From: Promethearchaeota archaeon
GTDB lineage: Archaea; Asgardarchaeota; Lokiarchaeia; Sigyniarchaeales; SOKP01
Reading direction: 5' to 3'
DNA length: 19,095 bases
Assembly: GCA_008080735.1 (NCBI GenBank)
Contig: SHMW01000083.1
Location: 1-19,095, forward strand
A program made the position numbers and the translations under genes. Numbering within the stretch: the stretch's first letter is position 1; each line of letters starts with the position of its first letter. Shown here one piece after another: positions 13,348 through 13,860 of this stretch. The notes beneath the pieces are model-generated. The model made no database searches. It was given only the letters and a program-made list of their open reading frames with translations, and had not been told where the DNA came from.

Positions 13348-13860
13348 GTGGACAATAGGTTCCATTGAAACCATGCTTTACCAGGGTAATTCCAATGGAA
13401 CGGCGATAATAATTCAATAGAAGCCAACAGAGCTCGGTTCATTTATTCTTTAACGATTAAATTCATAGGTTCAATAATTCATATCCACGCAGTTCGATAG
13501 AGCAATTATGAAGATAAGCAATTGTAATCAGAAATAAACCGCTCCAAAATCCTGAATCTCTAAATAACTCTGTAGGCCAGTGTCCAGTTATTTTTATGCG
13601 CTTATTAGGTCTATCAATTTAAAGTGTTAATGTGCGCTTATGAAACCAACAAAATTATACACTTGTATGTAAAAGCATTAATCATATTGTTATGGTTATT
13701 AGAAATTATGTATGAAGGTCTATGTTTTCAAACCATAGAATTGCTGAGAAGAAATGAATCAATTAATCTGCTTAAAATTACACCCGAATTAATAAAAATA
13801 CGCTGTTTTGATGGGTTGTACGTAGATCTCAAACCAATGCGAAAATATTCTATTGTCCAC
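13348..13860 (-). ncRNA. Candidate large (~513 nt) structured non-coding RNA of unknown class
   Basis: Perfect 11-bp terminal complementarity (GTGGACAATAG 13348-13358 / CTATTGTCCAC 13850-13860). Multiple internal helices have G-U pairs that work only on the minus strand. BRE/TATA lies upstream and a U-tract downstream. No credible ORF. Confidence 0.65.

Follow-up and report, generated by a model that had tools for sequence, protein, structure and literature searches.

A putative stand-alone non-coding RNA gene of undescribed class in one family of Lokiarchaeia

Sequence comparison indicates that a stand-alone, single-copy ncRNA gene lies between an NTP-transferase gene and a cyclophilin-like gene in the window (the whole stretch of 19,095 nucleotides analyzed here), and that this gene is kept throughout one Lokiarchaeia family. 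We consider it very probable that the RNA exists. The first-pass annotation had proposed an ncRNA of possibly undescribed class in an Asgard housekeeping region. Conservation, covariation of the terminal helix, single copy number, and the lack of an ORF or an Rfam match all agree with that proposal.

To our knowledge, the list of large stable RNAs in archaea comprises rRNA, RNase P RNA and SRP RNA, and we know of no regulatory or scaffold RNA of the 7SK, MRP or telomerase type in the Asgard lineage, which is closest to eukaryotes. An RNA of 350-650 nt that an entire Asgard family keeps in single copy would be a new class for this lineage, although one confined to a single family and absent from complete genomes of the sister family.

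Results

Gene layout at the locus

The window corresponds to contig C83 of a genome (G000) of 4.1 Mb and 34% GC. The ncRNA gene is present in one copy in this genome. The features of the locus are as follows.

12501-13346, plus strand: MobA-like NTP transferase gene, convergent with the ncRNA gene
13334-13347, minus strand: U-rich terminator tract; overlaps the final codons of the convergent NTP-transferase gene
13348-13860, minus strand: ncRNA gene body, about 513 nt, 33% GC, non-coding; ends inferred from promoter spacing, P1 and the U-tract
13348-13358, minus strand: 3' strand of P1, pairing with 13860-13850 (11 bp)
13359-13401, minus strand: 3' hairpin, stacked on P1; 13 of 13 pairs in the nearest homologs
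13363-13368, minus strand: conserved hexamer UCRDWG (UCAAUG in the window copy), proposed alternative partner (P2) of CAUUGG; 86 of 113 homologs
13402-13833, minus strand: variable AU-rich interior with lineage-specific hairpins; contains helices 2-6 of the first-pass annotation
13834-13839, minus strand: conserved CAUUGG motif, with a variable-length linker to P1; 48 of 49 representative homologs
13850-13860, minus strand: 5' strand of P1; core pairs 1-5 paired in 113 of 113 homologs
13881-13894, minus strand: archaeal promoter, with a purine-rich BRE (13894-13889) and the TATA box TTTAAATA (13888-13881)
14052-14441, plus strand: cyclophilin-like gene, divergent from the ncRNA gene
15577-15879, minus strand: Alba2-like Alba paralog with a basic/aromatic insert, a candidate partner only; orthologs in 54 of 60 family genomes

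The TATA box TTTAAATA begins at 13888, 28 nt upstream of the ncRNA gene. Both this promoter and the U-tract had been noted earlier and were confirmed in the sequence, as was the 11-bp helix closing the element (P1). Since no gene in the same orientation lies downstream, the element is not a riboswitch. The GC content of the ncRNA is 33%, compared with 46-52% for the RNase P and SRP RNAs of the same genome. The Alba paralog gene is located 1.7 kb from the ncRNA gene. Elsewhere in the window, a second gap of about 750 nt (3511-4262) possesses no ORF of 60 aa and gave no Rfam match at the gathering score.

Homologs and their distribution

Homologs were extracted by synteny and by a sequence model of the promoter and the 5' end. 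In total, 113 distinct homologs were obtained, and every one of the 13 genera sampled in the window's Lokiarchaeia (Promethearchaeota) family is represented among them; the records of the loci are titled Promethearchaeota or Promethearchaeia. Their lengths are about 340-630 nt, with a single outlier of 790 nt, and the interior of the RNA in relatives is roughly 250-550 nt. All 13 genera were also covered by the sequence model: of the 127 genomes of the family, 111 gave strong matches (E below 2e-6), 113 in total. Two matches each were found in two genomes: one second copy is truncated, and the other genome is 9% contaminated. The truncated copy (L388:6156-6238, G017:C87) possesses the promoter, the P1 5' strand and the motif, and has no 3' end. 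Dispersed copies, which had been named as the sign of a MITE, were not found.

No homolog was detected in 26 genomes of sister families, complete ones included. The best E-value outside the family was 2e-4, and a clear score gap separates the family homologs from the other families. None of the inspected matches outside the family has the layout of the ncRNA gene; the weak ones fall in ORFs or have no P1 partner. In bacteria and viruses, only chance matches to the 5' pattern appeared, none with a P1 partner.

The gene is kept in genus g3 despite the loss of the NTP-transferase gene, and in genus g6 despite a detached cyclophilin-like gene. Thus, it is independent of both neighbours. At one locus (L197, G004:C17), two ORFs that resemble IS200/IS605 tnpA-tnpB by eye replace the NTP-transferase gene beyond the terminator. 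Two short members of genus g11 (L039 and L043, 365-391 nt) have lost most of the 5' domain and carry a drifted motif, which makes them helpful for delimiting the minimal RNA. In one sister-family genome, an element of about 70 nt with the same promoter type and an end-closing helix of 8-9 bp was observed (L383:651-790, G073:C84). It also has an internal hairpin and a pyrimidine tail, and showed no Rfam match and no homolog in 25 other genomes.

Evidence for a minus-strand RNA

P1 was found in 113 of 113 homologs, with 10-17 bp and lineage-specific extensions. Pairs 1-5 are intact in every homolog, and double-sided changes occur at pairs 1, 2, 4, 6 and 10. At pair 4, C-G (90 homologs), U·G (13, in two genera), U-A (7), G-C (2) and A-U (1) were observed, and pair 3 is A-U throughout (113/113). 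In the two homologs nearest to the window copy, 10-11 of the 11 pairs are kept. The check on conservation that the first-pass annotation had called for gave homologs across the family and a covarying terminal helix.

A·C was detected at pairs 1-9 in none of the homologs. In the two largest genera, the 3' helix has near-invariant U·G pairs (40 of 40 at one position in g11). This asymmetry, U·G without A·C, favours pairing in a minus-strand RNA over inverted repeats in DNA. The promoter, the U-tract and the conserved wobble pairs, and not the folding energy, fix the strand; they support the minus-strand orientation claimed before.

A TATA-like box is located upstream in 113 of 113 homologs, 30-31 nt before the first P1 purine in 109 of them. 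A run of at least five U within 15 nt past P1 was found in 108 of 113. Because the TATA box and the U-tract partly served to select the homologs, the pairing is the stronger evidence. Transcription would run from the TATA promoter to the U-tract. A scan for sigma-70 promoters and intrinsic terminators, a type of scan ill-suited to archaea, gave results at the chance level. Among the homologs, no ORF of at least 25 aa was found to be conserved.

The folding energy of the whole element in the window corresponds to z = -1.3, and for the homologs the mean is about -2 on either strand. Besides the terminal helix, the first-pass annotation had listed six internal helices. Helix 1, the 3' hairpin, directly abuts P1 as described. 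In the two nearest homologs, 13 of its 13 pairs are formed, with one double-sided change and two wobble-to-Watson-Crick changes; thus it is more than a chance pairing. Helices 2-6 are present as written, but not beyond chance: dinucleotide shuffles of the element gave about 45 helices of at least 8 bp (G-U allowed) against 58 observed (p about 0.055). In the nearest homologs, where the alignment of the middle is uncertain, helix 2 (0 of 9 pairs), helix 3 (5 of 8) and helix 4 (3-6 of 10) are not kept. Under the same uncertainty of alignment, helix 5 is kept in part, with 8-9 of 11 pairs but only 1-2 of 6 in its inner stem, as is helix 6 (8 of 10 pairs). To call the RNA "highly structured" is an overstatement, because of the z-score of -1.3 and the chance-level helices 2-6.

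The end domain: CAUUGG, the UCRDWG hexamer and the 3' hairpin

Comparison of the homologs shows that the constrained part of the putative RNA is an end-closing domain, composed of P1, the CAUUGG motif, the UCRDWG hexamer and the 3' hairpin. CAUUGG has no conserved partner nearby; pairing with a local partner within 100 nt was not significant (mean z -0.3). A position-specific test revealed the hexamer UCRDWG upstream of the outer seven pairs of P1, at a distance of 5-8 nt in most cases; 86 of 113 homologs have it, against a background of 1.8%.

The hexamer is complementary to CAUUGG: 79% of the representatives pair well, compared with 10% of the control windows. Its variable positions are mostly purines and lie opposite the two U's of the motif. 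Changes in the motif are matched by changes in the hexamer in g4 (G·U to U·G), in one g9 genome (U-R to A-U) and in g8 (G-C and G·U swapped). In L039, the motif has drifted to UACUGA, and five of the six positions still pair with its own hexamer. The pairing is broken in g7 and in one g9 genome. The substitutions in the motif (U to A, G to U) would not preserve wobble pairing against a fixed target. This support for P2 is to be read with two limits, that the invariant positions carry no covariation and that related genomes are not independent.

P2 is the predicted lowest-energy state in g8 only; elsewhere it lies 2-11 kcal/mol above the local 3' hairpin, which competes for the hexamer in most genera. 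The 5' arm of this hairpin resembles CAUUGG, with an identical core in the window's genome. In the two largest genera, the counterpart of the hairpin is 82.5% paired, compared with 37-50% for slid registers. With a hand-supplied structure, its covariation exceeds the controls only modestly (7 double-change pairs; 170 of 500 shuffles were as high), so the hairpin rests mainly on conserved pairing. When the duplex energy of the motif with the last 45 nt was tested, only g3, g8 and a scatter of others reached significance. We read these results as a sign that the end domain has two alternative states, or that the contact requires a protein.

Other recurrent elements were observed. In g2, g5, g6 and g11, but not in the window's genus, the 5' strand of P1 has a second, internal copy that could invade P1. 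A U-loop hairpin near +80 was found in only 54 of 113 homologs. The core CAWUG is enriched (119 observed against 47 in shuffled sequences, the motif itself included) and is found again in each arm of the 3' hairpin. The interior is poorly conserved, with helices at the genus level only, and covariation by MI/APC over the whole alignment was dominated by phylogeny.

Tests against known RNA families

With the covariance models of Rfam 15, the search that had been proposed as the check on novelty, no match was found for the window, and 11 homolog loci gave no match at E<=1. As the first-pass annotation had stated, RNase P CR-I, SRP helix 8 and the loop C motif of 5S rRNA are absent; T-loop and box C are absent too. 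In the literature, no description of this RNA was found in a search that mostly did not extend to subscription papers. The RNA fails every family test that was run, which supports an undescribed class and implies no new mechanism.

Several specific candidates were also rejected. A supersized 5S rRNA with expansion segments, considered because a 5S match was missing, is not consistent with the lack of loop C and with the separate, permuted 5S gene of relatives. For a Y RNA or YrlA, Ro60 (TROVE) was found in 0 of 5 genomes, and P1 is unbulged. For a retron msr-msd or a telomerase-type template RNA, RVT_1 was found in one of five genomes, on another contig, and not in G000. An Sm-class snRNA was rejected, since strict Sm sites number 10 against 15 in shuffles, despite the four LSM-family matches in the genome, and U-tracts within the homologs are not enriched. 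Those LSM-family matches of G000 are on C34, C64, C37 and C1. For a C/D or H/ACA guide RNA, the window copy has no box C, and a K-turn-like pattern is not enriched. A likeness to domain V of group II introns was rejected by inspection.

Some observations concern 5S rRNA itself. In the window's family (L104-L107; G109, G030, G005 and G110), the 5S rRNA gene looks circularly permuted: it starts at loop C, and helix I is capped by a short loop. Such a permutation would account for the weak RF00001 scores in the window's family (12/126 hits), compared with mostly normal genes in the sister family (11/13 hits). No 5S, 16S or 23S rRNA was found in the G000 assembly, and a BLAST match for the permuted 5S there (C31) lies inside a coding sequence and is not a 5S. 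At L103 (G068:C1:1399892-1400758), three identical 5S rRNA genes follow one another in tandem about every 375 bp, and each has a TATA box of its own.

Discussion

Proposed function

By analogy with known RNAs, the ncRNA may be a trans-acting protein-binding scaffold or decoy, in which the choice between two end-domain pairings would govern binding. We propose this tentatively as the best supported of the readings considered; it is plausible, and we stop short of calling it probable. P1 would protect both ends and make the RNA stable. In one state, the 3' strand next to P1 would pair with the local hairpin arm and leave CAUUGG exposed. In the other, it would pair with the 5' motif (P2) and extend the end-to-end rod. 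A protein would recognise the closing domain, and the pairing that forms would govern its binding, as in 7SK, 6S and CsrB. The interior may serve as a loosely constrained platform.

The nearby Alba paralog is the best candidate for the partner, if an improbable one, and the link, which comes from co-distribution and loose linkage, is a lead only. Strong orthologs are present in 54 of 60 family genomes, and only generic Alba matches occur outside the family. In a tree, the paralog stands apart from canonical Alba; its best PDB match is Sso10b2, and its insert is a basic/aromatic hairpin. Genomes of the family possess 2-4 Alba genes, compared with one, canonical, in three complete sister-family genomes. 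The distribution of the paralog is the same as that of the ncRNA, and in g6 the two genes are about 11 kb apart. The co-distribution is weak as evidence, because many genes are probably family-restricted and there is no background estimate. More broadly, the RNA could belong to a third large archaeal housekeeping RNP besides RNase P and SRP, an outcome that we regard as unlikely; the end domain of this switchable RNA would change between the two pairings and bind an Alba-family protein dedicated to it. If true, such an RNP would have parallels in the Alba-fold subunits of RNase P/MRP in eukaryotes and in the way 7SK works as a decoy.

Alternative explanations

The same end domain could belong to an RNA that derives from or mimics tRNA, though we think this unlikely. 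P1 would imitate the acceptor/T-arm stack, the GG of the motif and the UC of the hexamer would imitate the D-loop/T-loop contact, and the RNA would be engaged by tRNA-handling proteins (RNase P or Z, the CCA enzyme, a synthetase, or aEF1A). The likeness does hold in register: in 27 of 48 representatives, the hexamer lies exactly 5 nt before a 7-bp acceptor-like strand, just where T-loop positions 55-60 would be, with U55-C56-R57; however, there is no T-stem, position 58 is usually G, and ARAGORN finds nothing. ACC directly follows the stem in 19 of 39 g2 homologs, but most other genera have U there. Several Lokiarchaeia tRNA-Arg genes have the same first four pairs, and a convergent tRNA-Arg(CCU) is located 0.2-8 kb from the best NTP-transferase match in five sister-family genomes. 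That tRNA travels with a different gene, and the window's family keeps normal tRNA-Arg(CCU) genes elsewhere. The double change in g4 suits an ordinary antiparallel helix and not the elbow geometry. The sister-family tRNA-Arg(CCU) genes at L392:2468-2544, L531, L536 and L544 lie on the side where the window's family has the ncRNA.

CAUUGG is a short, almost invariant motif that lacks a partner nearby, as expected if it were exposed in a trans-acting guide or antisense RNA and paired with rRNA, a tRNA 3' end or an mRNA. T-box antiterminators pair with the CCA end of tRNA, and UGG could do the same. We judge this explanation quite unlikely: the substitutions would break pairing with a fixed target and instead follow the RNA's own hexamer, C/D or H/ACA anatomy is missing, and no family-specific conserved complement stood out in 16S (partial), 23S or 5S rRNA, RNase P RNA or SRP RNA. 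It is equally doubtful that the RNA assembles into a protein-free multimer through the near-palindrome CAUUG, or through motif-hexamer pairing between molecules, in the manner of the ROOL/GOLLD cages or the OLE dimer. RNAs of this type multimerise through kissing loops (10.1101/2024.12.08.627333). The enrichment of CAWUG and its recurrence in both arms of the 3' hairpin would fit, but the predicted self-duplexes are weak (-4 to -5.5 kcal/mol), the interior does not have the dense conserved structure of ROOL, GOLLD or OLE, and the gene is chromosomal, single-copy and not prophage-linked.

We regard it as very improbable that the locus is a DNA element and encodes no RNA; the rest of the probability goes to explanations outside those named here. 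The AT-rich, single-copy element with its variable interior, together with the modest folding z-scores on both strands, could represent an origin of replication, a set of paired operators, or the remnant of a MITE with its terminal inverted repeats. By eye, the arms of the 3' hairpin also resemble the ORB core. Such an element would not account for the strand-specific U·G pairs without an A·C counterpart, the lineage-specific extensions of P1, the fixed TATA spacing or the one-sided U-tract. In two single-contig genomes, the nearest orc1/cdc6 is about 190-200 kb away, which argues against an archaeal oriC, and a single copy in the genome, with 113 matches in 111 genomes, argues against a MITE.

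Comparison with known RNAs

The putative RNA resembles archaeal RNase P RNA (RF00373) and RNase MRP RNA in its end-closing P1, its own promoter and its single copy. Rpp20/Rpp25 are Alba-family partners of RNase P and MRP, and an Alba-family protein is a candidate partner here. However, by motif search and in the family consensus, the ncRNA lacks CR-I, CR-V and the P4 pseudoknot, and a bona fide RNase P RNA is present at G000:C66; it was therefore rejected as an RNase P or MRP RNA. Archaeal SRP (7S) RNA (RF01857) likewise has paired 5' and 3' ends and the gene layout of a stable RNA. The helix 8 motif and the Alu domain are missing from the ncRNA, which was not accepted as an SRP RNA; a candidate with the helix 8 motif is located at G000:C3 (E 1e-19, below the gathering score). 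With tmRNA (RF00023), it shares a terminal stem stacked on a 3' hairpin, an unpaired 5' segment containing GG, and a large variable interior. It differs in having no G3·U70 (pair 3 is the invariant A-U), no T-arm and no conserved tag ORF of at least 25 aa, and SmpB was found in 0 of 5 genomes; tmRNA was rejected on these grounds.

OLE, ROOL and GOLLD (10.1101/2024.12.08.627333) are also stand-alone non-coding genes of several hundred nucleotides and of unknown function. The first-pass annotation had compared the element with OLE and ROOL, and the likeness holds for size but not for architecture, since conserved structure is found here only at the ends, with little conservation in the AU-rich middle, whereas those RNAs possess an ornate conserved core. 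They are bacterial or prophage-linked, whereas the ncRNA is archaeal, chromosomal and without an Rfam match.

The mode of action that we tentatively propose is closest to that of a stable trans-acting RNA with a small conserved protein-binding element. 7SK, 6S and CsrB are protein-sequestering RNAs of this kind. The ncRNA shows no sequence or model match to them, and neither repeated GGA motifs nor a promoter-mimic bubble was recognised in it. With 7SK, it would share a 5'-3' closing helix and alternative folds.
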